Shown here: positions 25,512 to 40,425 of the stretch, piece by piece
How positions within the stretch are numbered: position 1 is the first letter of the stretch
How the letters are laid out: each line of letters opens with the position of its first letter
Origin: a virus
Lineage: Duplodnaviria; Heunggongvirae; Uroviricota; Caudoviricetes
Strand: one strand, 5' to 3'
Length of the DNA stretch: 64,000 bases
Virus record (IMG/VR): IMGVR_UViG_3300046055_000032
Span: 22,145 to 86,144 of that record
Program-made: the position numbers and the translations under genes
The notes under the pieces: generated by a model
The model's database searches: none
Told to the model about the DNA's origin: nothing
What the model saw: only the letters and a program-made list of their open reading frames with translations

Positions 25512-26774
25512 TCAGTCCGCGCTACGCTGCTTGCCGTGGACGTTGTACCGCGTAAAGTACGATTGCTCGCACGTCAAGTACAGCGCCCGCGTATCGAACT
25601 GTCCGCGGATGACCGGGTTATCCACGTCAACGTACAGCGTCGGGAAGCCCACCTTCATGTGCGCGTGGCGCTGGTCGATGAGGTAGGTGTGGGTCAGTCC
25701 CGTGCCGCCGTTCTCGCCGTCGTCGTCGAAGTCGTTCGTCCCGTTCGACGCCAGCTTCTTGTCGGCAACGATCGGCCGATCCTGGTAGGCGCGGATCGTG
25801 AAGGTGATGTCGCGCCCGGGGTGCGTGGCGGTGGTGCTGAGCCCGTCCATGTCCAGCTTCGCCTGCACGCTCGTCAGGTCGTACCGGCCCTGGCTTTGCA
25901 GCTCGCGATAGAACGCGCGCCGCGTGTCACGGCCCGTCAGGAAGACTTGAGCCGTCGGGTCCGCGCCGTTGTCCTCCGTGTCGTCGATGATGGTATCCCA
26001 TCCGTCGAGCTGCCACGTAAGGTTCTGGTTGTAGTTGTTCTTCGATCCGTCGGGGCGCGCCACGACGCTATCGAACGTGGTAGCGCTGCGATCAACGTCG
26101 CCCTCGTACGGGTCGTAGTGACCGTTATCGTTCGAGGACGCCAAGTCGTCGTCCTCTTGATCGCTGGCGATGTGGCGATCGATGGTCTCCAGACCCTTCG
26201 CGTTCGAGTTCGCGTCGTTCTTCGCATCGCTCGTCGCGTTGGCGCCGATGTCGTTCGAGTCCGCGTGCGCGGAACGAACCAGCTCTTCGTTGAGCAGCTG
26301 CGAGTGAATGTCCCGCATAACGGCGAGCTTCCACTCCCAGACGTCCAGCCCGTCGTCGTGCTGCGCACGGAACCCGGCGTCGGTCGTCAAGTTGAACGGC
26401 GAATGCAGGAACCCCGGGATGCTATCCAGCTCGGTCGGGCTCGTATCAATGTTGCTGGCGACCGTGCCTTGCGTCGAGCCGCTGGCCGTGTCAGCGTCCG
26501 GGTCGGCGCCGCCGGCGCCCTTCGTGTTCGGGTCGCTGGTCGTGACGCGGAAACCGGACCGCTCCCACGGCTCCTTCTTCAAGATCGCGTGAGCGTTGCT
26601 TTCACGGTTCACCTGGTCGTAAACCAGGGCGCCGTAGGTGACGTTGATGGCGCCACCAAGATTGCTCACGTCACCGGCCTTGAAGAAGTTCTTCGCGAAC
26701 TTGGGGTACGCCTTGTTCTCCAGGCTCCACTCGACGTAGCTGGAGACGTTGTTACCGAGTAGGTCGTTCGACAT
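25512..26774 (-). CDS. major capsid protein (HK97-fold candidate)
   Basis: 420 aa ORF directly downstream of the scaffold and protease genes, in the canonical gene order. Confidence 0.65.
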   Translation of the reverse strand: MSNDLLGNNVSSYVEWSLENKAYPKFAKNFFKAGDVSNLGGAINVTYGALVYDQVNRESNAHAILKKEPWERSGFRVTTSDPNTKGAGGADPDADTASGSTQGTVASNIDTSPTELDSIPGFLHSPFNLTTDAGFRAQHDDGLDVWEWKLAVMRDIHSQLLNEELVRSAHADSNDIGANATSDAKNDANSNAKGLETIDRHIASDQEDDDLASSNDNGHYDPYEGDVDRSATTFDSVVARPDGSKNNYNQNLTWQLDGWDTIIDDTEDNGADPTAQVFLTGRDTRRAFYRELQSQGRYDLTSVQAKLDMDGLSTTATHPGRDITFTIRAYQDRPIVADKKLASNGTNDFDDDGENGGTGLTHTYLIDQRHAHMKVGFPTLYVDVDNPVIRGQFDTRALYLTCEQSYFTRYNVHGKQRSAD

Positions 26775-26776
26775 GT

Positions 26777-27586
26777 TCAGCGACCTCCAAAGTAGGTCTT
26801 GTTCAGGTACTTGTTGACCTCGAAGTGGTTCTGCTTCGTCCCAGCGCGGAACCCAACGCGACCACTGGACTCGAACGTGCCCCCGCTCACGTCCCGATCC
26901 TCACCGATCGCCTTCTCGATCAAGTTCGGGAGCGCCTTCCGCGGATCGTTATCGTTCTTCTGGAACACTTCTTGCAGCTCGTCGCTGCGACCGAAACCCG
27001 GTGGCGCGGGCGTGGACGCTTTCGCGACCTCCTCAGCGCGCTCTTCAGCCTGAGACACGGCCCGGCTCGTCGCCTCGTCGAGCAGCTCCTCGACTTCGTC
27101 GCGCGTGAACGTGTCGCGGCTCTTCGGGATCTTGGACTCGTCCTCGTCCGTGGTATCGTTAGCCGGCTCCGAGGACGAGCGCTGGTGACGTTGCGCGTCG
27201 GAGTCCGTGTAACGGTCCGGCGCACCGCCGCCCTCCTCTTCCTCGGGGTTCTCCCCGACGGCCTCCTCCTGTTGGCCGTCCGGGAACTCCACGTCGTCCT
27301 CGGGATGAGGCTCGTCCTCCTTCAGGACGCGCCGCTCGATCCGGTCGAGCCGCTCACCCATGCGCTCCTGCTGCTTCGAAACGGACTGGAGCGCCTGCAC
27401 GGCCTTGTCGAGAACCTCCTCGGTCTCAGCTTCGGGCGAGCCCTCGTCCTCCTCGTCCTCGTCGCGCTCGGGCGAGCGATCCTGCGTCTCCTCGTCCGGG
27501 GGTCCAGTGTCGTTCATCAGTGCGATCTCCTCGTCGTCGTCCTCCTCCTCGTCGTCGGGAGGAGGCACGTTGGTATCCTCAGTCAT
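26777..27586 (-). CDS. scaffolding protein
   Basis: 269 aa, extremely acidic (D/E runs), coiled-coil; lies between the protease and the capsid gene. Confidence 0.6.
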   Translation of the reverse strand: MTEDTNVPPPDDEEEDDDEEIALMNDTGPPDEETQDRSPERDEDEEDEGSPEAETEEVLDKAVQALQSVSKQQERMGERLDRIERRVLKEDEPHPEDDVEFPDGQQEEAVGENPEEEEGGGAPDRYTDSDAQRHQRSSSEPANDTTDEDESKIPKSRDTFTRDEVEELLDEATSRAVSQAEERAEEVAKASTPAPPGFGRSDELQEVFQKNDNDPRKALPNLIEKAIGEDRDVSGGTFESSGRVGFRAGTKQNHFEVNKYLNKTYFGGR

Positions 27587-27637: not shown

Positions 27638-30600
27638 TCATGGAATCATACCTCTCGGCATGGCGTTCCCGGTCAGTTGTTCGTAAACGATCGGGAACGT
27701 GTCCTTGAACTCCAAGTAATCCTGCTCCGGCAACATGGACGCGTCAATGTTCCCGTCCAGGCTATGCTTCATCGCGTCGAACACCCGGTCAGGGTTATCG
27801 AACTCTTGATACATCTTGAAGCAGGCCGAGCATTGCTCGTTCCACTCCTCCTCGAACACTTCGCCGCCCAGCGCCGCGAACGCGAGCATGTGCGCGGCCA
27901 AGCTCGGGTCGTCCGTTTTCGTTAACCGGTGATCCACGCGCCGAGCCTGTGATCGCGGGATCTCGTTCAACGCCCTCACGAACGCGTCACTGTGCACGTG
28001 ACTGACGCCGTGCGCGTCCGCGCTCTTCTGTTGATGTTGACAGATCGCCCACGCACTCTCCTCGTCATGACCCTCGTCGCGCAAACTCTCGACGCACTCG
28101 TGCGCTTCTTTCGGGTTCGCGACGTGCTCGTCAACCGGGACGTCCCCCCCGTCGCCGTCCCGATCGCGCGGAGAGTCAGCGGCTCGCTGCTCGCGCCGCT
28201 GCTTGTCTTGCGCCATCTGTTGATCGAGGCCGTTAAAGATCCCGTCCTTGTCGGCGGCGGAGCCCTCGTGCTCGTTAACGTCGTCCGTTTCGTCGAGCCG
28301 GCGATCCTCGTAATCGTCCTCGTCCTCTTGCTCGAAACGGGTATCGTCGCGATCCTTGCCACGGATCATGCCGAGCGTGCCCTTGTACATGCTCGCGACC
28401 CGCTCGTGACTGGGCTTCTTCGTGAATTGGCGCAGCATGGCGTGACGTTTCGCGCGCCACTCGCTCGCGGCGTGAAGCTCGTCGAGCGTCTTGCTCATCG
28501 CCGCAACGTCCCCGTCGTCTCGGTGCTCGCAGTCCTCGGGGCAACCGTCTTCGTGCCGCGGGCACGCCCCGTACTCCTCGCTGTCCTCGTCCTCGTCGTC
28601 TTTGGCGAGGACGTCATCCAGCTGGTTCTCGTACTCCTTCATCGCGAACCCTCGCGGGCGTGTCCCGGCCGTGTCGTCGTCATCGTTCGCGGAGTCCTCC
28701 GTACGGTCACTGCCCGCCGGGTAAAGATAATCCTCGACGTCACCGAGCTGCGGCTTCTGCGACGACGCGTCAGCGCGCGCCACGTGCGCCGACGACGCCG
28801 CGGTCGGGCGCGCCGGATAATCCAACGGGAACCCCCGGAACGAGCCGCTGTCGTCGCTGCCACGATTCTGCCCGTACGTGGGCCGCTGACGCATCACTTC
28901 GCTGCCGAGCGACTTCATCTTGTGCTCACCGGTATCGCGGAAGTACCTGTCACCGCTCGGGTGAGCCAACTCGCGCGCGAGCGCGTTACGGTATCCCGGA
29001 AGGGTGTTCATGTCTTTTCTGTCAAGGACTCGCGCATAGTCCGAGGTGCCGCCATAGCCGTGTGACTCGACGGTCTCGATCACGTCCCGCAACGCTTCCG
29101 GCTTGATCTCGAAGATCTCTTCGATCTTCTCGTAATCCGGCTCACGACCAAGCATCTCCCGGACCTCCGGGAATCGGGCTCCGCCACCCTCGCCGCCGGG
29201 ATCGCCCCCATCATGGGGATCGCCCTCGCCGTGAGGCTCGTCACCCCCGCTCTCGGCGCTCTCGTCGTAATAGTAGCCGCCGCGCGGGCCTTGCTGTACG
29301 TCCGCTCCCTCGGGTGCGTCCGAGGGGTCATCGACGTACGTGCGATCCTTAACGAGCGTCTGCAATTCCTTCAGCGTCTTGTCGCGGTGCGCGGCGTGCT
29401 CGTCGTAACTGTCAGCGACGTGCTCGTCGAGGTCACTGATAACGTCAACGGCGCTTTCCAGCCATGCGATGTCGTCGGCGCTGACGTTGCGCTCGAACGC
29501 TCGCATGTACTCTTGAAAGTCATCGAGCGCGTCATGGACGTCCCTGCGTTCCTCGCGGCGCATCGCGTCAACGTGATCTTTGACGAGCGCGTCGTCTCGT
29601 TTCAGTCGCGCGATCGCGAGACCGGCCCGGTCAACGTTACCTTTCTGGAGATCGATGCTGGCCTCGTACAGGTAATCGGCGAGGGAGCCGCACGCGATAG
29701 CGTCCTTGAACGCGATACCGTCCAGGATCGCCGCCTTGCTCGTTTCGTCCTCGATGACGTCGTCGTGGGACCGATGCTCGTCCTCGTCATCGCGTCCCGT
29801 CTCGTCGAGGCGCTCCAGGCGGCGCTTCATCTCCTTGCCCTCCTCTTCTTCTTTCTCGTCGTCGCTGTCCGCTTCCTCGTCAGCGTCCGCTCCGTCCTCG
29901 TCGTTGAGGAGGTCGTCGAGCGCCTTGTCAACGGTCGCGAGCGCGTCCTCGTACTCTTCGACGTCCTCGTCACCGTCCTGCTTGTCCGGTTCCTCGTCGT
30001 CGTCGTTCCAGAAGAAACGATACGACTCTTCGCCGTCGCTGACTCGCATCCCGTTCTCGGTTTTCGCGATGACGTCGAACCCCGCGCCTTGATTCATGCC
30101 GCGATCGCAGATCGTGACGGCGCTGAGGCTAATCTTCTCGATCTCGTTAACGAGCTTGCACGTGAACCCGCTACAGTCCGTCGTTTGTTGGGACTGCACG
30201 GCTTGCCCGCTGATACTGAACGCGCGCAAATCACCTTTCAGGATCTTCTCCGCGATGTCGCGCCCGATCTCGTCGTCCGTGTAAATTTTCCCAACGACGA
30301 ACAGGGCTTCCGTCCCCGGTTCGACGTCCGCGTCCTTGAGCAGATCGAACCGTTGCAGATCACTGGGCGTGACGGCGCGGACCTCGGTCTTGTAAACCGT
30401 GCCGTCCTTCGCCTCCCACGATTCGAGGATCTCGCCCGGAATGATGTCCGTGTGCTGCAACGAGAACCGGGCGCGCTTCAAGAGTTGCGGGAGCGCCGCC
30501 CGGAGCGCGTCGCCTTTGATGAGGTCGTTTTCGTCGTCAACGACGGCCACCGACGCGGGACCGTAAATCGTGACGCCGTCGCGCGCCTTGAACACGCGCA

Positions 30601-31018
30601 TCTCGTTCCGCGGACTCGGACGCCGCGCCGCTTTTCGCGCTCGATTGATGGGGTTGCTGTCCTCGGGCTCCGCCGCGTCCTCGGGCTCGTTCGAGTCCTG
30701 GCAAGAGCAATCCGTTCCGCGGCCGCAGCCACAATCCTTCGCCGTCGCGTCCTCGTCGTCCTCTTCATCGTCTGCGGGAAAGTCACGCTCCTCGTCGTCG
30801 CCGCTGACGACTTGCCGGAAGGAGTCCGGGTCGCCTTTCAGGATGTCGTTCGCGACCGCGTCCGCGAGCTGTTTCGAGAGACCGTTGCTCCGCAGGTCCT
30901 CTCGGATGGTGGCGTACGCGGTATCGTCCCCGAACTCCTCGCGGACGCGCTGCGCCTTACGGAAATAGTGCAGGAACCCCTCGCTCGGGGTCCCGTCAGC
31001 GATTGGAGTGGCCACCAA
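27638..31018 (-). CDS. 1126-aa polyprotein with an HK97-family prohead protease domain (aa ~140-320) and a long acidic scaffold-like extension
   Basis: RVFKARDGVTIYGPASVAVVDDENDLIKGDA...LQHTD...GLRAFSISGQ resembles S78 prohead protease motifs; the remainder is D/E-rich; contains the shared YVDDPSDAPEGADVQQGPRGGYYYDES motif (nt ~29261-29341). Confidence 0.65.
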   Translation of the reverse strand: MVATPIADGTPSEGFLHYFRKAQRVREEFGDDTAYATIREDLRSNGLSKQLADAVANDILKGDPDSFRQVVSGDDEERDFPADDEEDDEDATAKDCGCGRGTDCSCQDSNEPEDAAEPEDSNPINRARKAARRPSPRNEMRVFKARDGVTIYGPASVAVVDDENDLIKGDALRAALPQLLKRARFSLQHTDIIPGEILESWEAKDGTVYKTEVRAVTPSDLQRFDLLKDADVEPGTEALFVVGKIYTDDEIGRDIAEKILKGDLRAFSISGQAVQSQQTTDCSGFTCKLVNEIEKISLSAVTICDRGMNQGAGFDVIAKTENGMRVSDGEESYRFFWNDDDEEPDKQDGDEDVEEYEDALATVDKALDDLLNDEDGADADEEADSDDEKEEEEGKEMKRRLERLDETGRDDEDEHRSHDDVIEDETSKAAILDGIAFKDAIACGSLADYLYEASIDLQKGNVDRAGLAIARLKRDDALVKDHVDAMRREERRDVHDALDDFQEYMRAFERNVSADDIAWLESAVDVISDLDEHVADSYDEHAAHRDKTLKELQTLVKDRTYVDDPSDAPEGADVQQGPRGGYYYDESAESGGDEPHGEGDPHDGGDPGGEGGGARFPEVREMLGREPDYEKIEEIFEIKPEALRDVIETVESHGYGGTSDYARVLDRKDMNTLPGYRNALARELAHPSGDRYFRDTGEHKMKSLGSEVMRQRPTYGQNRGSDDSGSFRGFPLDYPARPTAASSAHVARADASSQKPQLGDVEDYLYPAGSDRTEDSANDDDDTAGTRPRGFAMKEYENQLDDVLAKDDEDEDSEEYGACPRHEDGCPEDCEHRDDGDVAAMSKTLDELHAASEWRAKRHAMLRQFTKKPSHERVASMYKGTLGMIRGKDRDDTRFEQEDEDDYEDRRLDETDDVNEHEGSAADKDGIFNGLDQQMAQDKQRREQRAADSPRDRDGDGGDVPVDEHVANPKEAHECVESLRDEGHDEESAWAICQHQQKSADAHGVSHVHSDAFVRALNEIPRSQARRVDHRLTKTDDPSLAAHMLAFAALGGEVFEEEWNEQCSACFKMYQEFDNPDRVFDAMKHSLDGNIDASMLPEQDYLEFKDTFPIVYEQLTGNAMPRGMIP

Positions 31019-31109
31019 CAGCAGTGCGTGCCGGCGACATATATAGGCATTTCCCTACTTATGCACGCCCGCGGAACGTTTTCGCTGGACCCGAAAACGT
31101 CGAAAACGT

Positions 31110-31643
31110 TCACTCGACGTCGCGCTTCCGATCCCGAACCAACGCGGCAGCTTTCTCTAACAGCGCTCGCTCCCCGTCGGGGGCCACCGACTCCGCCATG
31201 TCCTCCACAACCCCGGCCGCTTCGTCGATGCCGCGATTCTCCGCCTGCTTCAGCCCACGCACGACGTGCGGCATCAATTCTCGGATGCGCGTCCCGGACA
31301 ACCCCGACAGAGAGTCATCACGGTTCGGTCCGGTCAAAAGCCCGTACGCGCGCTCGCGATGATCCGTGTCGAGCGCCCCATTGTGATCCTCCAACAGTTG
31401 CCGGCGCTCGCGCTCCCAACGACCACGCTCCTCCTCCCACGCACCCCGAACAAGATCACTTAACCGTTGACAGTGAGCGTCCTCCAACGCAGCGCGCGCC
31501 GCGTCAACGATCCGCACCGCCTCAAAGTCACAGTACTTCGCAACGATGATCCCCAGCGCTCGCGCATCGTCCACGTCCCCGGGCCGCGCGAAACGGTCCC
31601 GTTTGACGTCCCGAACGATCGGTTCCAGCCGATCCCGCATCAC
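31110..31643 (-). CDS. hypothetical (177 aa), first gene of the accessory island
   Basis: ORF; coiled-coil-like. Confidence 0.45.
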   Translation of the reverse strand: MMRDRLEPIVRDVKRDRFARPGDVDDARALGIIVAKYCDFEAVRIVDAARAALEDAHCQRLSDLVRGAWEEERGRWERERRQLLEDHNGALDTDHRERAYGLLTGPNRDDSLSGLSGTRIRELMPHVVRGLKQAENRGIDEAAGVVEDMAESVAPDGERALLEKAAALVRDRKRDVE

Positions 31644-31954
31644 GCGGACGCCTCCTCAACGTCTTCGTCAAGGTTGTGCGTCTCTTTCTCGGTCACGCGG
31701 TACGTGATGAGGACCTGGTGCCCGTTCCCACACGCGAGCGTTTCGACGACTTTGGCGGGGAAGCCGTTCGTTCGTAACCAGTTGACGGCGACCCGGTCGG
31801 CGCCAGCCTCGCACTCAGGACAGCGAGGCATCACACTCCCTCCTGCGCGTCGGGACGCCCATCCCGCGGCGATGCCAGCAGCTCGACTAACGCCTCCCGC
31901 CGAGCGTCTCCGAGGATGCTCGTGCGCCCATACCGCGAACGCGTCACGGCTCAT
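31640..31954 (-). CDS. Zn-ribbon protein (104 aa)
   Basis: Internal ATG (MSRDAF) chosen for its ATGA overlap with 31954..32547; CPECEAG...CGNGH. Confidence 0.45.
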   Translation of the reverse strand: MSRDAFAVWAHEHPRRRSAGGVSRAAGIAAGWASRRAGGSVMPRCPECEAGADRVAVNWLRTNGFPAKVVETLACGNGHQVLITYRVTEKETHNLDEDVEEASA

Positions 31955-32547
31955 CACCGCACCTCCAACTGGATGGGTTCCCAACCAACGTCACAGCACA
32001 GGTACGCGACGCCATCAAGGAGGATGATGTCACCGACGCGGAAGGATCGGATCGCGTCCTCGTCGTCGACGACCCGCGGAACGGGGCAGTGCGGACCACC
32101 CGCCTCGACGCTTTGCCAAAGCGCTTCGAGGAACGCGTCCGTCGTGATGCCCAGCTCGTTCCGCGCCAACGAGCGCGGGTCCTTGGTGGGCGCGTGAGCG
32201 GCCACTTCCTCGGGCGCGAGCTGGCCGCGCCACGTCTCCTCGTACTGGTCGCGAAGATCCGCGAGACTGGGCGTTTCCGGTTCGTCGTCGTCACCGTAGT
32301 TGCGATGCCCGATCGGATTCGGATACCTCATCCGTTGATTGTGATGCCAGATGCGGACCTCGGCCTGGTACTCGTTCAGCCCGTCGAGCACGGCCTGGAA
32401 CTGCTCGTAACGGTCCGGGTGCGATGCCTCGTCCGCGGTCTCGTCGCAGTGATAACCGCAAAAGCAAACGTCCGCAGCAGCAGCCGTGACGCGGCACGCG
32501 CGCCGCGCGTGCTCGTCATGCTTCGCGCCAGCGCGAGTCAGGCTCAC
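31954..32547 (-). CDS. hypothetical Cys-rich protein (197 aa)
   Basis: ORF; CFCGYHCDE and LCCDVGW motifs. Confidence 0.5.
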   Translation of the reverse strand: MSLTRAGAKHDEHARRACRVTAAAADVCFCGYHCDETADEASHPDRYEQFQAVLDGLNEYQAEVRIWHHNQRMRYPNPIGHRNYGDDDEPETPSLADLRDQYEETWRGQLAPEEVAAHAPTKDPRSLARNELGITTDAFLEALWQSVEAGGPHCPVPRVVDDEDAIRSFRVGDIILLDGVAYLCCDVGWEPIQLEVR

Positions 32548-32744
32548 AGGACCTCCTCCTGGTAGATCGCGTCCGTGTACGCGGCGCGGACCCTGCGATT
32601 GATCTCCGCACGCGATCCTTGCACGTCCGGGTGCTGTGTGGCGTCCCGGATCGCCGCAGCGAGGAAGCGGTCACTCCACTCGCCGTCAGTTCGCTGGACG
32701 GCTGTCGTCACGATCTCGCGGATAGCGGTTTGCGTCCTCATCAT
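32544..32744 (-). CDS. small protein (66 aa) driven by cassette copy A
   Basis: ATG 8 nt after GAGGTGCC. Confidence 0.5.
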   Translation of the reverse strand: MMRTQTAIREIVTTAVQRTDGEWSDRFLAAAIRDATQHPDVQGSRAEINRRVRAAYTDAIYQEEVL

Positions 32745-32811
32745 GGCACCTCAACGCGCCCGCGTGGGCGCATATAGTAGTAGGACCTACTTGCTTATTA
32801 AATTTTCTAAA
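32745..32811 (-). promoter_or_regulatory. Promoter/5'UTR cassette copy A (TTTAGAAAATTTAATAAG-CAAGTAGGTCCTACTAC-hairpin GCGCCCACGCGGGCGC-GAGGTGCC-ATG)
   Basis: Near-identical to copy B; TATA-like TTTAAT about 55 nt upstream of the start; SD-like GAGGTG. Confidence 0.6.
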
Positions 32812-33025
32812 GGCCCGACGGTTCGCCCACGGGCGGCAGCACCCGGATCGTCTCGCTCGTCTCGTGGCGCAATTGATCCATCACGAAACCCTCGTCCTTG
32901 ACGGCGGGCACTCCCTCAGCGAGCCCCGGACCCGCCTCCGGCCCGTACGGATGCAGCTGAAGCGGCACCCACTTGTCCCGTTTCTCCTCCCACACGCCCT
33001 CGTTCCAGTTACGGCGAATCATCAT
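32807..33025 (-). CDS. hypothetical (72 aa)
   Basis: ORF; weak. Confidence 0.35.
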   Translation of the reverse strand: MMIRRNWNEGVWEEKRDKWVPLQLHPYGPEAGPGLAEGVPAVKDEGFVMDQLRHETSETIRVLPPVGEPSGL

Positions 33026-33096
33026 AACGCCCCTGACCGGACTCGAACCGGCGGCACTCGATCAAACGGTGCCGGGCCCCGTGCGGCCTCGCGGGG

Positions 33097-33279
33097 CTAC
33101 GACCCGGTACGGACGACCTCGATCCTGCTGGCACGATCCGCATCCGACGCATCGCTCTCCCACAACGCGCCGCACGCGCACACGAACTTGTACGCGAACC
33201 CCCCGAACGCCTGAGGACGGTACGTGGGGCTGCCCACGGCCACCCCGTGGCAGCCGTTGCTCGGGCAAGACTGACTCAT
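33097..33279 (-). CDS. small Zn-ribbon protein (60 aa)
   Basis: Internal ATG (MSQSCPSNGCHG...CACG) of track ORF 33097..33750; 1-nt overlap with the upstream stop. Confidence 0.4.
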   Translation of the reverse strand: MSQSCPSNGCHGVAVGSPTYRPQAFGGFAYKFVCACGALWESDASDADRASRIEVVRTGS

Positions 33280-33992
33280 CACATACGCACGCCCTTGGGG
33301 ACGTCGCTTGCGCGCTTCGCCGCAGCCGCGACCTCCTCCTCGGCCTCGCCGGCGTCGTCCGACGCCCACACGGCCTTGTCCAGGCGGTCCAGCACGACGA
33401 GAGTGCCGGCGTCGAAAACGTTCTTCACGACGCCCTCGTACGTTTCCCCGTTCTTGTGCTCGACGGTGAACCGCTGACGGACGGTCGAGCCCTCGCCGCT
33501 GCCCGTCTTCGTGACGTCCCCGAACGAAAGGTCCTTGATCGGCGCCATCGTCTCGCGCTTCCGCTCCTCGCGCTCCTTCCAGCGGAGCGCCTCCTCGTGC
33601 TGCTTGTTGCGGCGCTCGCGCTCGGCCTGCTCGGCCAGCTCCTCCTCGCGCTCCCGGATGCGCTCGCGCGCGTCCTCGCTGACCGGGTACGCCGTCCAGC
33701 GGGTGCTCGTCGCCCAGAACGTGTCCCCGAGTTCGTCGTTCAGCTCGCACAGGACGCCGTCCGTGTACGAGCCGACCGCGTCAGGGTGCGAGAGCCGTTC
33801 GCGGGGTTCGTCGTCCACGATCGAAACGATGTACCCGGTCTTGCCCTCCGCGGGGCGAGGATGGACCTTCTCGACCCGCACGGTCGCCAACGCGGCGCGC
33901 TTGGGGCTATAGTTGTAAAGCAGCGCCGGGAACGTGTCCCCGACGTCCGTCGGCCAGTCCTCGGGATCGAGTCCTGTCGCGTTGATCGTCAT
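33279..33992 (-). CDS. hypothetical (238 aa) with a central coiled-coil (ERIREREEELAEQAERERRNKQ)
   Basis: Start reassigned to the internal ATG (MTINATG) downstream of cassette copy B; the track ORF extends upstream only by reading through the cassette. Confidence 0.55.
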   Translation of the reverse strand: MTINATGLDPEDWPTDVGDTFPALLYNYSPKRAALATVRVEKVHPRPAEGKTGYIVSIVDDEPRERLSHPDAVGSYTDGVLCELNDELGDTFWATSTRWTAYPVSEDARERIREREEELAEQAERERRNKQHEEALRWKEREERKRETMAPIKDLSFGDVTKTGSGEGSTVRQRFTVEHKNGETYEGVVKNVFDAGTLVVLDRLDKAVWASDDAGEAEEEVAAAAKRASDVPKGVRM

Positions 33993-34064
33993 CGTCTGGC
34001 ACCTCAAACGCCCATCGCGGGCGCGAATAGTAGTAGGACCTACTTGCTTATTAAATTTTCTAAA
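33993..34064 (-). promoter_or_regulatory. Promoter/5'UTR cassette copy B
   Basis: TTTAGAAAATTTAATAAGCAAGTAGGTCCTACTACTATTCGCGCCCGCGATGGGCGTTTGAGGTGCCAGACG-ATG. Confidence 0.6.
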
Positions 34065-34614
34065 CCTCCTGGGGCGAGTCGGGGGTGCTGACGTCAATCG
34101 CTAAACAATCCGGGAGCGGAAGCGCTTCGCTCCAAACCCCCAACCCCTCACAGGACAGCTCTCCCCTCTCTCGACCCTCCTCGGACTCGGCCGCCGCGAA
34201 CGCGCCCGGCGCCTCCCCGCACTCAAGCACCACATCCGCAACGACCGTGCTGTCAGCGCTCACCACGAGCGTATGCGAACCCTCGCCCAAGCACGGAAGG
34301 GCGCGGGCCTCCCCTATGTCCCAGCCCTCAGCCGCGAACTCGGCGCGATCCATGCCCGCCTCCACGCGCAGCGTCGCGTCCAGCGGCGCATTCTCAGCAC
34401 CAGTCAACGTGACGCGCAACGTGTCGATGGCAAGGTTCTCGTCCATGTCCGCACCGTCGGTGCGAGCGCTCGCGTACGGTGCCGGCTCGTACTCCAGCCA
34501 TTCCGGACCGACGAGAACGGTCGCCGCCAACGCGACGGTCACGGCCATCATCAGCACCACGCCAACGACCGGCGAGACGGCGCGATCCTCAACGGTTCGC
34601 GTATTCGCGATCAT
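34060..34614 (-). CDS. membrane-anchored / secreted protein (184 aa)
   Basis: Internal ATG (MIANTR) with ATGA overlap; N-terminal TM or signal helix VVGVVLMMAVTVALAATVLV; 4 Cys. Confidence 0.5.
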   Translation of the reverse strand: MIANTRTVEDRAVSPVVGVVLMMAVTVALAATVLVGPEWLEYEPAPYASARTDGADMDENLAIDTLRVTLTGAENAPLDATLRVEAGMDRAEFAAEGWDIGEARALPCLGEGSHTLVVSADSTVVADVVLECGEAPGAFAAAESEEGRERGELSCEGLGVWSEALPLPDCLAIDVSTPDSPQEV

Positions 34615-34955
34615 GGTTCGTCCTCCGGGTCGTGCGCGAGGGCCCGATAAGCGTCCCCAGTGTTGCGGGGGATCGAGCCCGTCATGTACTCCAGAAACAC
34701 CGTCAGGCATTCATCGACGTTCGTGTCGTCAGCGTCCCGCGCAGAAACCGACGTGTAGTCGAGGTAAATGCTGTCGGGATCGGTGGGTCGCCACACCTCC
34801 GCGATGATGCCCCGCTCGGCCGTGCGGCGGAACCGGACGCGCCCGCCGGTACCGAACCAGGCCTCGACCGCGGGTTCGCCCTGCTTGCTCGTCCGCGTGA
34901 CGCGGGTCACGGTGAGGCTGCTGTCGGGGGAGTCGTCGCCGGGTTCAGGCATCAT
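34611..34955 (-). CDS. hypothetical (115 aa)
   Basis: Internal start MMPEPGDD overlapping the stop of the 47-aa ORF. Confidence 0.5.
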   Translation of the reverse strand: MMPEPGDDSPDSSLTVTRVTRTSKQGEPAVEAWFGTGGRVRFRRTAERGIIAEVWRPTDPDSIYLDYTSVSARDADDTNVDECLTVFLEYMTGSIPRNTGDAYRALAHDPEDEP

Positions 34956-35088
34956 TCGCCCTCTCCCCCGCCTCGTCGGGGTGCGGGTACGCCGCGCGCT
35001 TCGCTTGCTTGCCAAGGTAACGCTGAACCTCGGCGCTGTGCTCGACCTTGTCGCCGGGCGGGACCAGGTCCGTGTTGGTTCCGTTCAT
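34945..35088 (-). CDS. small protein (47 aa) driven by cassette copy C
   Basis: My own translation (not in the ORF track): MNGTNTDLVPPGDKVEHSAEVQRYLGKQAKRAAYPHPDEAGERANDA; GAGGTGCC 4 nt upstream of the ATG. Confidence 0.4.
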   Translation of the reverse strand: MNGTNTDLVPPGDKVEHSAEVQRYLGKQAKRAAYPHPDEAGERANDA

Positions 35089-35155
35089 CGTGGCACCTCA
35101 AGCCCTCTCGGGCGCAATAAGTAGTAGGACCTACACCCTCATTAAAGTTTCTAAA
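35089..35155 (-). promoter_or_regulatory. Promoter/5'UTR cassette copy C
   Basis: TTTAGAAACTTTAATGAGGGTGTAGGTCCTACTACTTATTGCGCCCGAGAGGGCTTGAGGTGCCACG-ATG. Confidence 0.55.
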
Positions 35156-35422
35156 TTGGGAGCAGCGGGCAACCGACAAGCAGGGACACCCCTGACAACC
35201 ACGACGCCGAACACGCTCCCGTGTCGGCGTAACCGGCGAACCCGAAGCCAGCTCGCCCGAGCCGAACGAGCAGCTCTCGATCTACCGCCGAGCGGGCTCC
35301 CTGAGCCCACGGCAGGGCCGGAGCGACTCGTCAAGCGACGAGAAGGAAAAGCAAAGGCGGGCGTGCGCCCCGTTGAAGGTTAAGGTGAATCGTAAGCGCC
35401 CGCACGCTCGGGCAGCCCTCGA

Positions 35423-35563
35423 TCACCGCTCCGGCAACGGGACCGGCACGATCACGCCGTCACCGCCGCAATGAACGTGTTTGAACATCACGGCGTGCAG
35501 CGCGCTGGCACAGTACGCGTGATTGCTGCCGGTGATGTCGATCTTGAACGCGACGTCACACAT
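35423..35563 (-). CDS. small Cys/His protein (46 aa)
   Basis: Internal ATG of track ORF 35423..35650; weak. Confidence 0.3.
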   Translation of the reverse strand: MCDVAFKIDITGSNHAYCASALHAVMFKHVHCGGDGVIVPVPLPER

Positions 35564-35786
35564 CGACGTGCTCCGGCCAGTCGTGAACCTGCTTGAGCGA
35601 CAAGAACCGCTCGACGCTGGTCGCGGTCTCGCGGTAAAGCTTGTAATCACTCAAGTCGTACTCCTCCCGGATCTGGCTGGCGGACTCTTGCGCCCGCTGC
35701 GCACCCGCAGGGCTGTCGTCGAAGATCTCCATCTCGACCAGCGTGCGCGGGTTCGCTTCATCACGGAGAGCGACGATCAATGGCAT
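35556..35786 (-). CDS. hypothetical (76 aa)
   Basis: ORF preceded by the degenerate cassette GATTTAATATCCTTAAAG...GAGGTCGCCATCGA-ATG. Confidence 0.45.
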   Translation of the reverse strand: MPLIVALRDEANPRTLVEMEIFDDSPAGAQRAQESASQIREEYDLSDYKLYRETATSVERFLSLKQVHDWPEHVDV

Positions 35787-35832
35787 TCGATGGCGACCTC
35801 ATGTGGGGGCTTTAAGGATATTAAATCTTCGC
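35787..35832 (-). promoter_or_regulatory. Degenerate promoter cassette (TTTAATAT ... GAGGTCGCC)
   Basis: Similar architecture to copies A-D, with lower identity. Confidence 0.4.
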
Positions 35833-37200
35833 TTACTCGACATAGCCGTATTGCCCGAAGCAGTGACCGTTCTCGCGCACCCGCGGCGGGCACTCCGGTT
35901 TCTCGACGTCAACGCCCCGCTCTCTCTGGAACGCCCACTCACCGAGCTTCTCGGCGTAGTCCAAGTACTGGGGATCGTCGTCGTTGTCGCCCTTGTAGAC
36001 GCCCGCGAAGTCCTGCGCCCACTCCTTGACTTCCTCGACCTGCTCGCTCATCACTTGGATCTCGGCCGGGACGCCATCGACCGTCACGACCACGTGAACG
36101 GCGCGATAGTAACCACCGGCTGGGTCCTCCCGAAACTTGTCGTCCACTTCGCGAACCTCAGCGCCTTCGGCGACGCTCCACTCTTGCAACCGGCGAACGG
36201 TCTGCTCCAGGTCGTCGGACGTGTCCGTGAGGACGCGCATCCCGATGATGTCGTCCATGTGCTCTAACGGATCGTCGTCGTACTCCTCCTTGCGATCCTC
36301 ACGTTTTGTCTTGAGCGACCCGGCATCCTTGAGGCGACCACGGGTCTTGGAACCCGAGAACGCTTCCCTCAAGGATGAGTGAAGGTCGTAGAACGGTTCC
36401 GTGAGTTGACCAACCCACTCGTCGTACTCGTTCTCGCTCGCGCCCATCTCTGGCGCGTCCTGGATGTGCTCCGCCCATGTTCGATCGAACGCGGGCGCGT
36501 GCTCGACCACAGCCTCCCGATCCTCAGCCGCCGCGAGCGCTTTCCGCCGATCGACAAACACCCCACCTTGCGGACCCTCGTGAACGGGAACGCCCTCGGG
36601 CACATCGTCTGGACCCTCCACGTACTGGCGATGATCGGGCGGTGGGAGATCGCCCGGGGTCGTTTGCGTCACGACGATCTCGCCAGTGTTGACGCCAACC
36701 TTCAGGAGCGATGTCTCGATCTCTTCGTTACGCATCGCCTCGAACGAGTTCCCGGTCGCCTGCCGAGCATCATCCAGCGATCCGTAGATGCTTACGTGCG
36801 GGTGATCGAGTTCCTGGTCGAACGCGTCGCGTTTCCAGTCAAGGTAAACGTCGCTCTCCGGGAAGTCAACCGCAACGCCCACGACCTTACCGTCCTCGTC
36901 GATGACCCGATAACAGGAACCATCCCCGAACCAGTTCCCGTCCTCTTGCTTCACGATCACTTCACCCGTCTCGGGATCAATGTCGTGATCCACGACCCTG
37001 TCAAGCGACACAAGCCCGTCCTCCTCGTCTTGTTCTTCGCGCAGCTGCTCCTCGAACTCGGACCCCGGTGCCTCCTCACGCATCCACTGACTTTTCACAG
37101 CGACGCGCTGCTCGACATCGCGTTGCTCGTCCCCGTCGCGTCTCCCCTCATGCAGCCAGTGAGCGTTCCTCTCGCTCTCACGCCAATCGATCGTGATCAT
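35833..37200 (-). CDS. RelA/SpoT-like nucleotidyltransferase (small-alarmone-synthetase/toxSAS-like) domain protein
   Basis: C-terminal SGSKTRGRLKDAGSLKTK...DDIIGMRVLT...GGYYRAVHVVVTVDGVPAEIQVMSEQ..W matches the GRVKs..Si..K / DliGiRii / YrSlHlvv...EiQiRT motifs of the RelA_SpoT synthetase fold; the start is set to the internal ATG that gives an ATGA overlap; carries the shared QYVEGPDDVPEGVPVHEGPQGGVFVD motif. Confidence 0.6.
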   Translation of the reverse strand: MITIDWRESERNAHWLHEGRRDGDEQRDVEQRVAVKSQWMREEAPGSEFEEQLREEQDEEDGLVSLDRVVDHDIDPETGEVIVKQEDGNWFGDGSCYRVIDEDGKVVGVAVDFPESDVYLDWKRDAFDQELDHPHVSIYGSLDDARQATGNSFEAMRNEEIETSLLKVGVNTGEIVVTQTTPGDLPPPDHRQYVEGPDDVPEGVPVHEGPQGGVFVDRRKALAAAEDREAVVEHAPAFDRTWAEHIQDAPEMGASENEYDEWVGQLTEPFYDLHSSLREAFSGSKTRGRLKDAGSLKTKREDRKEEYDDDPLEHMDDIIGMRVLTDTSDDLEQTVRRLQEWSVAEGAEVREVDDKFREDPAGGYYRAVHVVVTVDGVPAEIQVMSEQVEEVKEWAQDFAGVYKGDNDDDPQYLDYAEKLGEWAFQRERGVDVEKPECPPRVRENGHCFGQYGYVE

Positions 37201-39248
37201 ACCGGGACTGCCTCCTGCCATTGCTCGATCGCTTCCTCCCACGCCCGCTGGAACGCTGTCTCGGACGGTTCGTGAACATCGTCCAAACGGTACACGGCCT
37301 CTTCCGGGCTCGCCACGACGTACTCGGCTTCGTCGTCGAAAAGACCCGGGCCCGTCATCCAAGACGTGGCGATGTTCTCCACGGGAACGCGAGCACTCAG
37401 CACCACGTCACCGAAATCTTGCGCGACTTCCGGGTCGGCCGTCCACGATTCGAGCGCGCGATGCTGGACGGCCAGCTGCTCCTCGTTCCCTTCCTCTTTC
37501 GCGCGCCGTAGCTCGTCCGCGATCTCGCCACTGACGCCGCGGTACATTGTGACGGTGTCCGTGTCCGGGTCGTACGTCGGGTCCACGTCACGCACGAACG
37601 CTTGCGTGAACGCGGCCATGCGCGCCATGTGCTCGGCGTCCCGTTGCCCAACGCCAAACGACTCCGAGCGCTTCTGTTCCTCGGCCAGGATGCCGGGATG
37701 CACGAACGAGTTCCCGGTCTTCTGCACCGCCCACGCCCACATCGGTAACGTGGACGGTTCCTCAGGGCTCTGGCCCCAACTGTCCGTCGCGTTAACGGCT
37801 TCCGGGAGCTTCTCCACTAACTGTTCCCCGATCTTACTGTAAAGCGGGCCGGCGTGCAGTTCCTCGAACGTTGATGTCTCACCGATCGTCACTTCGTCAG
37901 CGTTCGTCTTGACCAGGTTCTTGAGATGCGACGACGCGGCCTCGCGGTAATCCGTTTCGTCGAGGCGTTCCCGGATCGCGTCCCAGTCGATGCCGTCCAC
38001 CAGCTTTTCGCCGTACTGTTCCGCGTCCTGGATCGAGACCGTCTCGCTCACGCGGCTCGATTCGTGCGCCGCGTCGCTGGTCTCGACTTGCTCCGACGCG
38101 ACGTCGTGACCCGTCGCGGAAACGTGCCCGCCGAGACCGGACGGCGTCTCGAAACAGTGACCCGGCACGTCACAGTACTCTTCACCCTGCTTGTGGATGC
38201 GCGTCATCTGTAACTCGGCACCGACCGGCGCGTCGAGCAGCTCCGAAACGTACCGTCTCGTTTTCCCGATGCCGTCCGAGTCAACGTCCCGGAGACGATC
38301 CACCCACTCGTTGCGGACAGCGACCGCCTCTTCGTTGTACAGTTGCCAGCGCTCCTCCTGGTCCATGATGTTAACGTTCTCGCGCGTGTAGGTGTCACCG
38401 TCCGGGTCCCCAGCGACGAGCACCTCTGCCTCCTCACCCCCGAACAGTCCCGAGGACAGCCAGGAACCAATAACGCGCTCCACGGGAACGCGCGTCGAGA
38501 TGACGACGCCGTGGTTGTCCTCGGCAAAGTTGCCCGCCACGACAGGGTTGGCCGTCCACGACTCCACTGCCCGATGCGTGACGTCCGCTTCGTCGGTCGA
38601 TGGGCCCACGCCCGAGCGGATGAGTTGGTCAAGCTCTTCCTGAAAGTGCTCCGCGCCCGTGCCGCGGAACACTTCGATGGTGTCGGTGCCCGGGTCGTAG
38701 GTCGGATTCCACTCCCGATGCAACGCTTGGTCCAACGCCGCCGCCTGCTCGAACTGTTCAGCCTGCTCGGGCGACAGGTCGTGCTCCGCCACTTCTTCCT
38801 CCACGTCCGGGTGAAGCTTGTCAACGCCGTACTTCTCGCGCGCCCACGCCCACACCGGGACCGTCGCCTCGCTGTTCGGCCAGCCGCCGAAACGGTTCAG
38901 CGCGTCCGGTGTGACGTCCTCGATCTCCCCGGGCGCTTCGACCAGGCGGAACGGTTCCTCGAACTGTTCGTACTCCTCCATCGTCATGCGGGAGGGATCA
39001 AGGCCGTTCTCCCAGTCGGACAGGGGCGCTTGCTCTAACCGTTCCTGCACAGCGTCACGGTACCCTTCTGCAAGCGTCGCCGGTGATGCGCCTGCGACAC
39101 CTGACGACTCGGCTTCGTCCTCATCAACGCTCCCCTCCGACTCGTAGTACAAGCCACCGCGCGGTCCTTCATGGATCTCGACGCCGTTCGGCGCTTCCGA
39201 AGGATCGTCAATGTAGATGTTCGCTTTCGCAGCGCGCTTCCCCGTCAT
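37197..39248 (-). CDS. protein with two tandem ADP-ribosyltransferase-like (R-S-E) domains
   Basis: Two homologous roughly 170-aa segments, each with FRG/YRG (Arg), ESWTA (S-x-T) and GGEEAEVLV / DDEAEYVV (E-x-E) in the order and spacing of ART toxins; N-terminal shared motif IYIDDPSEAPNGVEIHEGPRGGLYYES. Confidence 0.55.
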   Translation of the reverse strand: MTGKRAAKANIYIDDPSEAPNGVEIHEGPRGGLYYESEGSVDEDEAESSGVAGASPATLAEGYRDAVQERLEQAPLSDWENGLDPSRMTMEEYEQFEEPFRLVEAPGEIEDVTPDALNRFGGWPNSEATVPVWAWAREKYGVDKLHPDVEEEVAEHDLSPEQAEQFEQAAALDQALHREWNPTYDPGTDTIEVFRGTGAEHFQEELDQLIRSGVGPSTDEADVTHRAVESWTANPVVAGNFAEDNHGVVISTRVPVERVIGSWLSSGLFGGEEAEVLVAGDPDGDTYTRENVNIMDQEERWQLYNEEAVAVRNEWVDRLRDVDSDGIGKTRRYVSELLDAPVGAELQMTRIHKQGEEYCDVPGHCFETPSGLGGHVSATGHDVASEQVETSDAAHESSRVSETVSIQDAEQYGEKLVDGIDWDAIRERLDETDYREAASSHLKNLVKTNADEVTIGETSTFEELHAGPLYSKIGEQLVEKLPEAVNATDSWGQSPEEPSTLPMWAWAVQKTGNSFVHPGILAEEQKRSESFGVGQRDAEHMARMAAFTQAFVRDVDPTYDPDTDTVTMYRGVSGEIADELRRAKEEGNEEQLAVQHRALESWTADPEVAQDFGDVVLSARVPVENIATSWMTGPGLFDDEAEYVVASPEEAVYRLDDVHEPSETAFQRAWEEAIEQWQEAVPV

Positions 39249-40180
39249 CGATCCCCGTCACCTCGTTCTTGCTCGGGCTCCACGATACCGGTACGGAAAT
39301 GCCGGTGACGGCACCTGGGATGCGGGAGCGGGAAGTTGTCGTCGCGGACAGGGTCCCACGAGGGGTTCCCCAGGTCCGGGTACTCGGGGTGCTGTCCCGT
39401 GCTGACGTCAATAATGAGTTCTTTCAGTTCCGGTTTCGGGATGCCGCCCTCGCTCTCCTCCATGATGACGCGGCACACGTCGCACGTTTTCTCGTCGTTC
39501 ACGGTCCCGAACTCGTACAAGAAGGAACGGTCCGTGCGCTCCTCCGCTTCATCGTACGCTTCGTCGCGCGCCGTCTGGTACACTTTCCACGTTTCCGTGG
39601 ACGCGATGCGCTCCAACTGGGAACGTACCTCGTGCCCGATCTCTTGTACGAGACGCGAACTGATGCGCCCCGGACTCACGCGCCCGTCACGGTACGCTTC
39701 AAGAATCACTTCCCGGATCGTGCGCGCCTGCTCGTTCGTAAAGGACGCGAACGTGTCCGCTAACGTTTCCTCACTTAACGCTTGCTGGAACGAGCGTTCG
39801 TGCCGTGGCGAGAACGCCATCGAGACGCCCACGCCCGTCGCGACGTCCTGTAGCCCGCGAACGTACGTGTCGCGTAACCGTGACTCCATGATGGACTGCA
39901 TACGGTCCGCGGTCCGTTCCGAAATATTGTTCACGAGCTGGTTCAGTTCGTCCGGTGACGCGTGCCGATGCTGCGGCAACGCCTCCAACTCTTCCCGCAA
40001 GACGCGATCCAGATCCCGCGACAAGCGCTCCTCCGCGACGTCAGCGCCGCTCTGCTTCCGCAACCATCGCGCCGCTTCCTGGTGCTTGCGCAGGAACGCA
40101 TGAAAGTTCGCGAGCCGGTTCTCGGCCGTGCTTTGTCCCAGTTCCAGTACGTGCTGGTTCGCGCGAAAGATCGGGTTCAT
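39245..40180 (-). CDS. phage Mu gpF-like minor head (head morphogenesis) protein
   Basis: C-terminal PLPHPRCRHRH matches the conserved 'hPnCRC' signature of Phage_Mu_F; located just downstream of the portal. Confidence 0.65.
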   Translation of the reverse strand: MNPIFRANQHVLELGQSTAENRLANFHAFLRKHQEAARWLRKQSGADVAEERLSRDLDRVLREELEALPQHRHASPDELNQLVNNISERTADRMQSIMESRLRDTYVRGLQDVATGVGVSMAFSPRHERSFQQALSEETLADTFASFTNEQARTIREVILEAYRDGRVSPGRISSRLVQEIGHEVRSQLERIASTETWKVYQTARDEAYDEAEERTDRSFLYEFGTVNDEKTCDVCRVIMEESEGGIPKPELKELIIDVSTGQHPEYPDLGNPSWDPVRDDNFPLPHPRCRHRHFRTGIVEPEQERGDGDR

Positions 40181-40425
40181 CGATGCGCCTCCCAGTCCGT
40201 GAGCGTCACCATGCGGTGCCAATCACAGTCCTCGTTCGGGCAGATCACGCTCGGCTCAACGTTCCCGTTCGCGCCGATCTCGTGCTCGGGATGAAGGCGC
40301 GCGACGTGTCCGCGCGGACATCGCATCCAGACGGTCCCGCTCGCCGCCAAGTACCAGGTTAACGGGTCGTCGAGGTTCTCGTCGTGCGTTAACGTGCTCG
40401 TCGGGTCCGCGATCCCGGGCGTCAT
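40177..40425 (-). CDS. small Cys/His protein (82 aa)
   Basis: Internal ATG of track ORF 40177..40446; CPRGH...CPNEDCDWH. Confidence 0.4.
   Translation of the reverse strand: MTPGIADPTSTLTHDENLDDPLTWYLAASGTVWMRCPRGHVARLHPEHEIGANGNVEPSVICPNEDCDWHRMVTLTDWEAHR

Follow-up and report, generated by a model that had tools for sequence, protein, structure and literature searches.

A conserved modular motif is shared by unrelated effector proteins and prohead proteases of archaeal tailed viruses and may load them into the capsid

Three large proteins encoded in the head module of a tailed virus (Caudoviricetes; IMG/VR record IMGVR_UViG_3300046055_000032, positions 22,145 to 86,144, a stretch of 64,000 nucleotides which is called the window here) carry the same short peptide motif and share nothing else. 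These are a prohead protease polyprotein, a RelA/SpoT protein and a protein with two ADP-ribosyltransferase (ART) domains. Judged from sequence comparison, the motif behaves as a self-contained, mobile mini-domain of ~30 residues that has been attached to dozens of unrelated domains. We consider the chances about even that it represents a modular tag by which injected effectors, and also the protease itself, are loaded into the capsid interior, with or without cleavage by this protease; for brevity, the motif is also referred to as the tag in the following.

The motif in three head-module proteins

The carrier genes and their motif copies are listed below by window position. Scores of the copies were obtained with an external hidden Markov model (HMM) of 198 instances, from which the window's own protease (P0050) and a 90%-identical relative of its RelA/SpoT protein (P0062) had been left out; i-E denotes the independent E-value and aa amino acids.

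27638-31018, minus strand: prohead protease polyprotein, 1126 aa, with an S78-type domain at aa ~140-331 (phrog_23555 head maturation protease, E 9.4e-38)
29258-29350, minus strand: tag copy in the protease polyprotein, aa 557-587, KDRTYVDDPSDAPEGADVQQGPRGGYYYDES; 61.8 bits, i-E 3e-18
35833-37200, minus strand: RelA/SpoT protein, tagged, 455 aa from the likely start M55 (Pfam RelA_SpoT, E 4.4e-11)
36544-36636, minus strand: tag copy in the RelA/SpoT protein, DHRQYVEGPDDVPEGVPVHEGPQGGVFVDRR; 31.7 bits, i-E 8e-9
37197-39248, minus strand: ART protein, tagged, 683 aa, with two tandem DRAT-like ADP-ribosyltransferase domains (Pfam DRAT, E 2.3e-10)
39135-39227, minus strand: tag copy at the N-terminus of the ART protein, aa 8-38, KANIYIDDPSEAPNGVEIHEGPRGGLYYESE; 59.4 bits, i-E 2e-17
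38208-38264, minus strand: decayed fourth copy between the tandem ART domains, aa 329-347, KTRRYVSELLDAPVGAELQ; 9.3 bits, i-E 0.077

An earlier note, made from the DNA letters alone, had described a core of ~26 residues in these proteins. The minus-strand translations contain the three peptides as written there and the core was given correctly, but the conserved unit is longer, comprising ~30 residues and beginning four residues further upstream with [LIV]-x-K-[AG]-R-x-Y. Plus-strand translation of the same coordinates yielded no motif; the window's genes lie on the minus strand. In a six-frame scan of the window, the core pattern GP[RQK]GG occurs at three places only, which are the three motif copies, and a rescan with the external HMM gave no match at E<1 besides these copies and the decayed fourth one.

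Pairwise BLASTP of the three proteins returned the motif as the only significant similarity (E 4e-9, 2e-5 and 8e-6), confirming that they are otherwise unrelated. A larger homologous domain, named beforehand as the outcome that would speak against a dedicated signal, was thus not found, and ordinary paralogy is excluded because the motif is a mobile module on dozens of unrelated domains and the three proteins have nothing else in common. DNA identity among the three copies is 52-61%, and identical residues are encoded by identical codons in only about one third of cases; hence, the motif has been selected as protein and does not reflect a recent DNA repeat. That the similarity is a functionless product of chance, low-complexity sequence or recent DNA duplication could be suspected since the proteins are acidic and rich in low-complexity sequence, and one of the BLASTP alignments did extend past the motif into a low-complexity acidic linker. 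This explanation, whose probability we put at practically nil, is refuted by the external-HMM scores, by the codon comparison and by the 501 protein clusters retrieved in an exhaustive search (see below), as is also seen from the conservation of the motif across genomes of GC 32% to GC 63% (window GC ~62%).

All three copies are located at the upstream edge of a module. In the ART protein, an acidic Gly/Ser linker (aa 39-62) follows directly. The copy of the protease polyprotein lies downstream of the S78 domain and an acidic, helical, scaffold-like stretch, and is followed by a Gly/Asp/Glu linker and a C-terminal part of ~510 aa without assigned function. Most divergent of the three is the RelA/SpoT copy, with GVFVD in place of xYYE; it lies between an N-terminal domain without assigned function and the RelA_SpoT domain and is conserved in the relative P0062 (locus L020). 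The decayed fourth copy has retained the first half of the motif and lost the GPxGGxYYE half (BLASTP E 0.11), and the same inter-ART relic is present in relative L020 (13.4 bits, i-E 5e-4). As this half-decayed tag sits exactly between the two ART domains, whose internal duplication is visible in the translation, the ART protein gives the impression of having arisen from two 'tag + ART' modules by fusion or duplication.

Consensus, placement and predicted fold

The consensus of 221 full-length instances reads [LIV]-x-K-[AG]-R-x-Y-[IV]-x-[DS]-P-S-E-A-P-E-G-[AV]-x-V-Q-E-G-P-[RQK]-G-G-x-Y-Y-E-[TS], with positions Y5, P13, G21, G24, G25 and Y28 being near-invariant and an E/G/D/S-rich stretch downstream. 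Acidic, halophile-type carriers and Lys-rich ones alike retain the basic residues at its K and R positions as well as the aromatic Y-Y pair. In the 20 residues behind the motif, disorder-type residues (Gly/Ser/Asp/Glu/Pro/Thr) make up 66%, compared to 53% overall.

Placement and copy number were evaluated for 148 proteins. One copy is found in 87 of them, two in 49, three in 9, four in 2 and five in a single protein, with a median spacing of 255 residues between copies and six tandem pairs. In 73 of the 148 proteins (49%), the first copy begins no more than 60 residues from the N-terminus, in some at residue 3-12, while in ten proteins no more than 30 residues separate the end of the last copy from the C-terminus; one of these (P0038) terminates exactly at ...GGLYYE. 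The 276 copies in these carriers include 174 internal and 18 C-terminal ones. Internal copies have a median score of 52.7 bits compared to 59.7 bits for N-terminal ones, and in multi-copy proteins the first copy scores 47.9 bits and later copies 49.8 bits. The idea that internal copies are decaying relics is rejected in general by these scores, the copy between the window's ART domains being the exception.

AlphaFold2 modelling of the N-terminal 45 residues of the ART protein, using a 66-sequence alignment, gave a three-stranded beta-meander (residues 9-13, 25-27 and 33-37) with a core predicted local distance difference test (pLDDT) score of ~89. The same meander (pLDDT ~80) was obtained for P0055, a tagged protease, where it is placed behind the protease core and past a linker of pLDDT <50, without informative packing of the tag against the core; the modelled core itself matches the T4 protease gp21 (PDB 5jbl, Foldseek E 7.7e-5). 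In both contexts modelled, the motif is thus predicted to fold independently.

Comparison with Pfam, NCBIfam and PDB sequences produced no significant match to the motif, and the only PHROG containing it is phrog_24083, a 1233-position profile without assigned function. A non-significant resemblance (E 0.52) of PDB 1uit_A, the DLG5 PDZ domain, extends to the first strands and a GLGF-like loop (…PLGISIVSGEKGGIYV). Literature searches retrieved no description of the motif, nor does it occur in the passages on linkers, cleavage and processing of two pertinent studies (Iyer 2017, PMC5512222; Jamet 2017, PMC5576092). In a previous treatment of HVTV-1 and HCTV-5, the ART was classed simply as a metabolic gene (Liu et al. 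2021).

Distribution across archaeal viruses

An exhaustive HMMER scan of 1.84 billion cluster representatives identified 501 clusters at E<=1e-3, 79 of them at E<=1e-10, whereas word-index protein searches proved nearly blind to so short a motif (1 and 2 matches). From the profile search, P0002 and P0071 were excluded as low-complexity false positives. Additionally, a four-sequence consensus alignment was used to find loci, which led to nine viral loci and two genome loci. Among the 149 top proteins retained for composition statistics, about two thirds are very acidic (halophile-type), while one third is of ordinary or Lys-rich composition.

A search of related haloviruses, as had been proposed earlier, was positive: by tblastn against 50,697 phage records, only Druskaviridae were found to carry the motif (HVTV-1, HVTV-2, HCTV-5, HCTV-1 and HCTV-16), and the 501 clusters extend its range up to viruses of DPANN archaea. 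In Druskaviridae, the motif is N-terminal on a giant 'zeta toxin' protein, encoded after the MuF gene ('gpF-like' or 'head assembly') and upstream of the prohead protease and the major capsid protein (MCP). HCTV-5 gp114 has the motif once at its N-terminus and twice in tandem at its C-terminus; the C-terminal pair of HVTV-1 resides instead in the separate small protein gp116, and the HVTV-1 protease is without a tag. A further HCTV-5 carrier, gp26 (L019 3926-4363), consists of 145 residues, in which the motif is preceded by an N-terminal leader and followed by a Gly/Ser linker and a small domain; its gene adjoins ribonucleotide reductase in the early/replication region, ~60 kb from the head module, so that tagged genes are not confined to the morphogenesis cluster.

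The assignable non-halophile contexts are likewise archaeal, comprising contigs of a Pacearchaeota and of an Aenigmatarchaeota metagenome-assembled genome (MAG) and an archaeal contig with archaeosine tRNA-guanine transglycosylase genes. All assignable contexts are archaeal tailed viruses, either haloarchaeal or DPANN. Among 72,556 plasmids, the motif was not found. The tag-bearing loci L008 and L009 encode portals of phrog_18178, as does the window, and the MCP of L008 belongs to phrog_24667 like that of the window (E 4.8e-75). The restriction to Druskaviridae among the phage records and the common portal and MCP families fit a lineage-specific receptor for the tag.

Carrier proteins, gene arrays and the head module

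More than 15 unrelated Pfam domains have the motif in common. In the 66 top matches, DRAT was counted five times, Peptidase_S78 four times, S78_2, GNAT and RelA_SpoT three times each, and SAM lyase and Peptidase_Mx twice each, with single cases of zeta toxin, topoisomerase IB, ADPrib_exo_Tox, polyA polymerase and a Rubrerythrin/EncFtn-like domain. DUF3293 (together with SAM lyase) and DUF5661 are further partner domains among the carriers, the latter being matched by P0138, a related carrier. Besides ART and RelA/SpoT, the remaining partner domains, too, are toxin-like or anti-host enzymes.

Several carriers are fusions with head proteins, arranged as portal-tag-SAM lyase-RelA/SpoT (P0112), portal-tag-tag (P0021 and P0015), MuF-tag-RelA/SpoT-tag (P0084, locus L018) and S78 protease-tag-...-tag-ART (P0045). 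The portal of P0015 (L007 177-4910), with its two C-terminal tag copies, is apparently interrupted by a LAGLIDADG (intein-like) insertion. In four S78 proteases (P0045, P0051, P0055 and P0138), the tag starts ~10-30 residues past the catalytic domain. Multi-effector chains such as P0004 (five copies) and P0112 are common.

Tagged genes also form arrays. A DPANN-associated, virus-like contig (L017, Pacearchaeota MAG contig NZCX01000018.1, 759-7728) has five consecutive genes each with an N-terminal tag, two of which encode ART, one zeta toxin plus glutaredoxin and two unassigned proteins. Three tagged genes are consecutive in L006. In L009, three tagged proteins and then a tagged MuF follow the portal within ~13 kb, with two untagged open reading frames (ORFs) interspersed. 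Four giant proteins (579-1586 aa) with ten tag copies and several GNAT acetyltransferase domains are consecutive in L005 (4324-18747), where PHROGs revealed no recognisable portal or MCP in the 19 kb examined.

The other genes of the window's head module are the following.

46473-48020, minus strand: TerL
40648-42699, minus strand: portal, a candidate receptor of the tag (phrog_18178, E 1.3e-26)
39245-40222, minus strand: MuF-like head morphogenesis gene without tag (PHROG head-morphogenesis/minor-head families, E ~1e-8; Pfam Phage_Mu_F weak, E 1.4e-4, below cutoff)
34060-34710, minus strand: protein whose N-terminus matches the signal of archaeal type IV pilins (Pfam Pilin_N, E 1e-7)
26777-27586, minus strand: acidic 269-aa protein
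25512-26774, minus strand: MCP, a candidate receptor of the tag (phrog_24667, E 2.7e-18)

Transcription proceeds from high to low coordinates in the order TerL, portal, MuF, ART, RelA/SpoT, small genes, protease, 269-aa protein and MCP; a tail tube protein is also encoded in the window. Tagged genes are found between portal/MuF and protease/MCP in the window, HVTV-1, HCTV-5, HCTV-1 and L009. ATGA start/stop overlaps couple MuF with ART (39245-39248) and ART with RelA/SpoT (37197-37200). The long TTG-initiated RelA/SpoT ORF (35833-37362, 509 aa) is probably an over-call, with M55 (MITIDW...) as the most likely true start, because the relative P0062 starts with MITIDW and this start overlaps the ART stop in ATGA. 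The assignment of the protease polyprotein is supported by HVTV-1 gp119, the prohead protease (phmmer E 2e-35), the Pfam Peptidase_S78 match being weak (E 0.013, below cutoff). A megablast search of the region against phages gave no match, relatives of the window's ART protein or portal were not found in IMG/VR, and the window's MCP shares 25% identity with that of HCTV-5.

Some further features of these genes are worth recording. A Cys/His-containing segment near the C-terminus of the polyprotein (aa 968-1002) matches the first 38 residues of HVTV-1 gp119 (phmmer; L001 25288-25400), which suggests, at the level of sequence, a domain permutation between the two proteases. The Pilin_N protein between the RelA/SpoT gene and the protease is kept in the related contig L020 (3701-4255). 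The window's portal has several CxxC…CxxC zinc-ribbon-like insertions and ends in a ~45-residue tail of nearly pure Gly/Ser/Gln (…GGQGSGSSGMGGLPSGGMGSGQGGLGGAPQGQGGGLGGGQGGGGR).

Possible roles of the motif

Portal, MuF and prohead protease are internal components of the procapsid. Hence, the identity of the carriers, the location of their genes and their fusion with these three proteins indicate the virion interior as the place where the motif acts. From its established reality, modularity, distribution, partner domains, genomic context and predicted fold, we infer docking, packaging, ejection and possibly cleavage as follows. The tag would dock onto a lineage-specific internal head component during procapsid assembly, the inner surface of the MCP or the scaffold/protease core being the likeliest partner and portal or MuF the alternatives. 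By docking, any domain attached to the tag would become enclosed in the capsid, and the enclosed effectors would later exit together with the DNA and become active in the next cell infected. For the window, these would be the double ADP-ribosyltransferase and the RelA/SpoT nucleotide pyrophosphokinase, elsewhere zeta toxin, GNAT, SAM lyase and others. The prohead protease may also cut beside the tag, as in T4, freeing the cargo from its carrier or from the tag.

The earlier note had proposed either a capsid-targeting or portal-docking signal or a site for the prohead protease. The comparative evidence fits a virion-assembly signal, on the basis of effector-type carriers, proteases, portals and MuF as carriers, the location between portal/MuF and protease/MCP, and terminal placement by a linker; it is compatible with a docking tag as well as with a processing site. 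The latter alternative, in which the motif is only a recognition or processing site of the S78 prohead protease at polyprotein junctions that are cut inside the head while packaging is achieved by other means, is rather unlikely in our view, yet several observations suit it. Thus, the motif is placed at junctions in P0112, P0084, P0045 and the window's protease polyprotein, there are up to five copies per protein at the spacing given above, and internal copies are conserved as well as terminal ones. The conserved K-x-R upstream and Y-Y-E-[TS] downstream provide candidate P-site residues; T4-type prohead proteases cleave after Glu, and T4 gp21 removes targeting propeptides (PMC7411985). Polyvalent proteins have been argued, in the relevant passages of Iyer 2017 (PMC5512222), to need processing into individual functional units. 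Should the motif be a processing signal instead of a loading tag, it would reveal what an archaeal prohead protease recognises in its substrates.

On the other hand, cleavage at copies located at residue 3-12 or at the protein end would free few residues only, and it is not apparent what processing would achieve at C-terminal tandem pairs that have nothing behind them (HCTV-5 gp114). Known viral cleavage sites are short and extended, in contrast to 30 conserved residues with a predicted fold; if the models hold, a folded unit of this size exceeds what proteases normally need as a cleavage site. Stand-alone cargo proteins have no other common element that could serve for targeting. The junction between the two ART domains evidently need not be cut, because its tag copy has decayed. 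Finally, the motif HMM, applied in search of a shared protease site or mimicry, found no match in the window's other candidate substrates, MCP and 269-aa protein, nor in its portal or MuF. Taken together, placement at the very N- or C-terminus, copies in tandem at C-termini, the flexible linker, the predicted autonomous fold, the position directly behind the protease domain and the restriction to one MCP/portal lineage suggest a docking tag, and a dual role as in T4, docking followed by cutting, is favoured because it accommodates the facts for docking as well as those for processing.

A number of findings nevertheless weigh against a loading tag. In the portal-tag-cargo, MuF-tag-cargo and protease-tag-cargo fusions, a docking tag is superfluous because the carrier is already in the procapsid, and the junction position resembles a processing site. 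Targeting alone would not demand such conservation of the internal copies, which nearly equals that of the N-terminal ones. The sole carrier found in the L008 fragment from portal to MCP is the protease, and the absence of the tag from the HVTV-1 protease means that it is no universal protease-targeting device. HCTV-5 gp26 is tagged although encoded beside ribonucleotide reductase and far from the head module, and the AlphaFold2 models are uninformative on partners.

Instead of serving for loading, the motif could signal ejection or translocation, or could connect head-internal proteins to MuF, portal or tape-measure protein as an adaptor, so that they exit with the DNA through portal and tail. 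The MuF protein (SPP1 gp7) is associated with the portal and leaves with the DNA. The same set of carriers, effectors expected to act in the next host, and the copies near portal and MuF genes and in fusions with them would fit, but prohead proteases are tagged as well and are not expected to be ejected, which makes this role improbable. As little weight is given to a function in the infected cell, where the motif would dock effectors onto one host hub (e.g., ribosome, chaperone or proteasome) or mediate their self-association. It is compatible with the enzymatic diversity of the toxin-like domains that have the motif in common, the early/replication position of the HCTV-5 gp26 gene and the retention of the K, R and Y-Y positions in acidic and Lys-rich carriers. 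However, the motif directly follows prohead protease domains, in L008 being found only there, and it is strongly linked to head-module genes. Moreover, since hosts range from haloarchaea to DPANN archaea, a universally conserved host target would be demanded.

Returning to the loading tag, a bolder version is entertained more tentatively. The motif might be a universal, autonomously folding capsid-loading tag of a large archaeal tailed-virus lineage, from haloarchaeal to DPANN viruses, which binds the inner face of the HK97-fold shell or the scaffold and would thus be the viral counterpart of encapsulin cargo loading. A search for the tag would then read out the entire, hitherto unrecognised set of effectors that archaeal viruses deliver from the virion, including ART, RelA/SpoT, zeta toxin, GNAT, SAM lyase, topoisomerase IB and polyA polymerase.

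To our knowledge, capsid-targeting signals are known from few bacterial phages only (T4, P1, HK97), where they are short, idiosyncratic and unrecognisable by sequence. If the loading reading is true, archaeal viruses would gain their first known capsid-targeting signal, one that is strongly conserved and can be searched by sequence, and head-packaged, presumably injected proteins of these viruses could be identified from sequence alone. This would reveal an anti-host and anti-defence toolkit parallel to the MuF toxins and polyvalent proteins of bacterial phages. At the same time, the cultured viruses HVTV-1 and HCTV-5 would afford a tractable handle on the recognition between cargo, protease and shell in HK97-fold capsids, and a peptide would be at hand for loading foreign proteins into halophilic virus capsids.

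Comparison with known systems

The HK97 prohead protease gp4 reportedly has a C-terminal capsid-targeting tail behind its catalytic domain, and a C-terminal propeptide of the SPN3US protease gp245 was proposed to target this protease into the prohead (PMC7411985). An element directly after the catalytic domain is likewise present in P0045, P0051, P0055 and P0138, but the tails of gp4 and gp245 are private to the protease, whereas the archaeal motif is shared with many cargo proteins.

The capsid targeting sequence (CTS) of phage T4 is a short tag on unrelated proteins (IPI-III and the ADP-ribosyltransferase Alt), which are taken up into the prohead and later injected together with the DNA; Alt is packaged via this N-terminal sequence, which adjoins a prohead-protease site and is then removed by gp21 (PMC7411985). 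Both systems have in common that one tag is found on otherwise unrelated proteins including an ART. The T4 CTS, however, is an N-terminal propeptide of ~10-20 residues that binds the scaffold core, while the archaeal motif has ~30 residues and a predicted fold, is strongly conserved over hundreds of clusters and is N-terminal, C-terminal or internal, often in multiple copies; in the window, it is N-terminal only on the ART protein. There is no sequence similarity between the two. In phage P1, the N-terminal ~30 residues of DarB suffice to load this large anti-restriction protein or a reporter into the capsid, and the Dar proteins have no shared consensus (PMC9024508). Compared to this similar N-terminal ~30-residue signal, the archaeal motif is highly conserved across carriers and viruses.

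The toxin domains often found fused to MuF in bacterial phages include ART and RelA-like ones, and such MuF toxins were proposed to be loaded into the head and injected, as stated in parts of Jamet 2017 (PMC5576092). RelA/SpoT is also listed among the phage-type polyvalent-protein domains, for which head loading and delivery at injection were proposed, in passages of Iyer 2017 (PMC5512222). As far as these passages go, the ART and RelA/SpoT repertoire and the position by portal/MuF correspond to those of the archaeal carriers, which add zeta toxin, GNAT and SAM lyase. The bacterial systems described there either fuse the toxin to MuF or join many domains in one chain that is processed by an MPTase peptidase. 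In the window, MuF, ART and RelA/SpoT are instead separate, translationally coupled genes, and the element common to the latter two is the tag; true MuF fusions with the motif at the junction exist elsewhere (P0084). Multi-effector chains are frequent among the carriers, Peptidase_Mx was detected in 2 of the 66, and a Pfam scan of the window's three proteins detected no MPTase.

Encapsulin cargo-loading peptides are short and conserved, are joined by linkers to diverse enzymes and load an HK97-fold shell; they are extended, measure ~10 residues and are usually C-terminal, and the shell has neither portal nor terminase. A conserved peptide, a flexible linker and diverse cargo are found here as well, with the Pfam domain diversity and the linker composition given above, and one carrier even has the Rubrerythrin/EncFtn-like domain. 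By contrast, the window encodes TerL, portal, MuF, prohead protease, MCP and tail tube and is hence no encapsulin shell, and the peptides show no sequence similarity to the motif. Overall, the motif is functionally akin to capsid-targeting and cargo-loading signals, from which it differs in being long, predicted to be folded, strongly conserved, position-independent, present in multiple copies and archaeal-viral.

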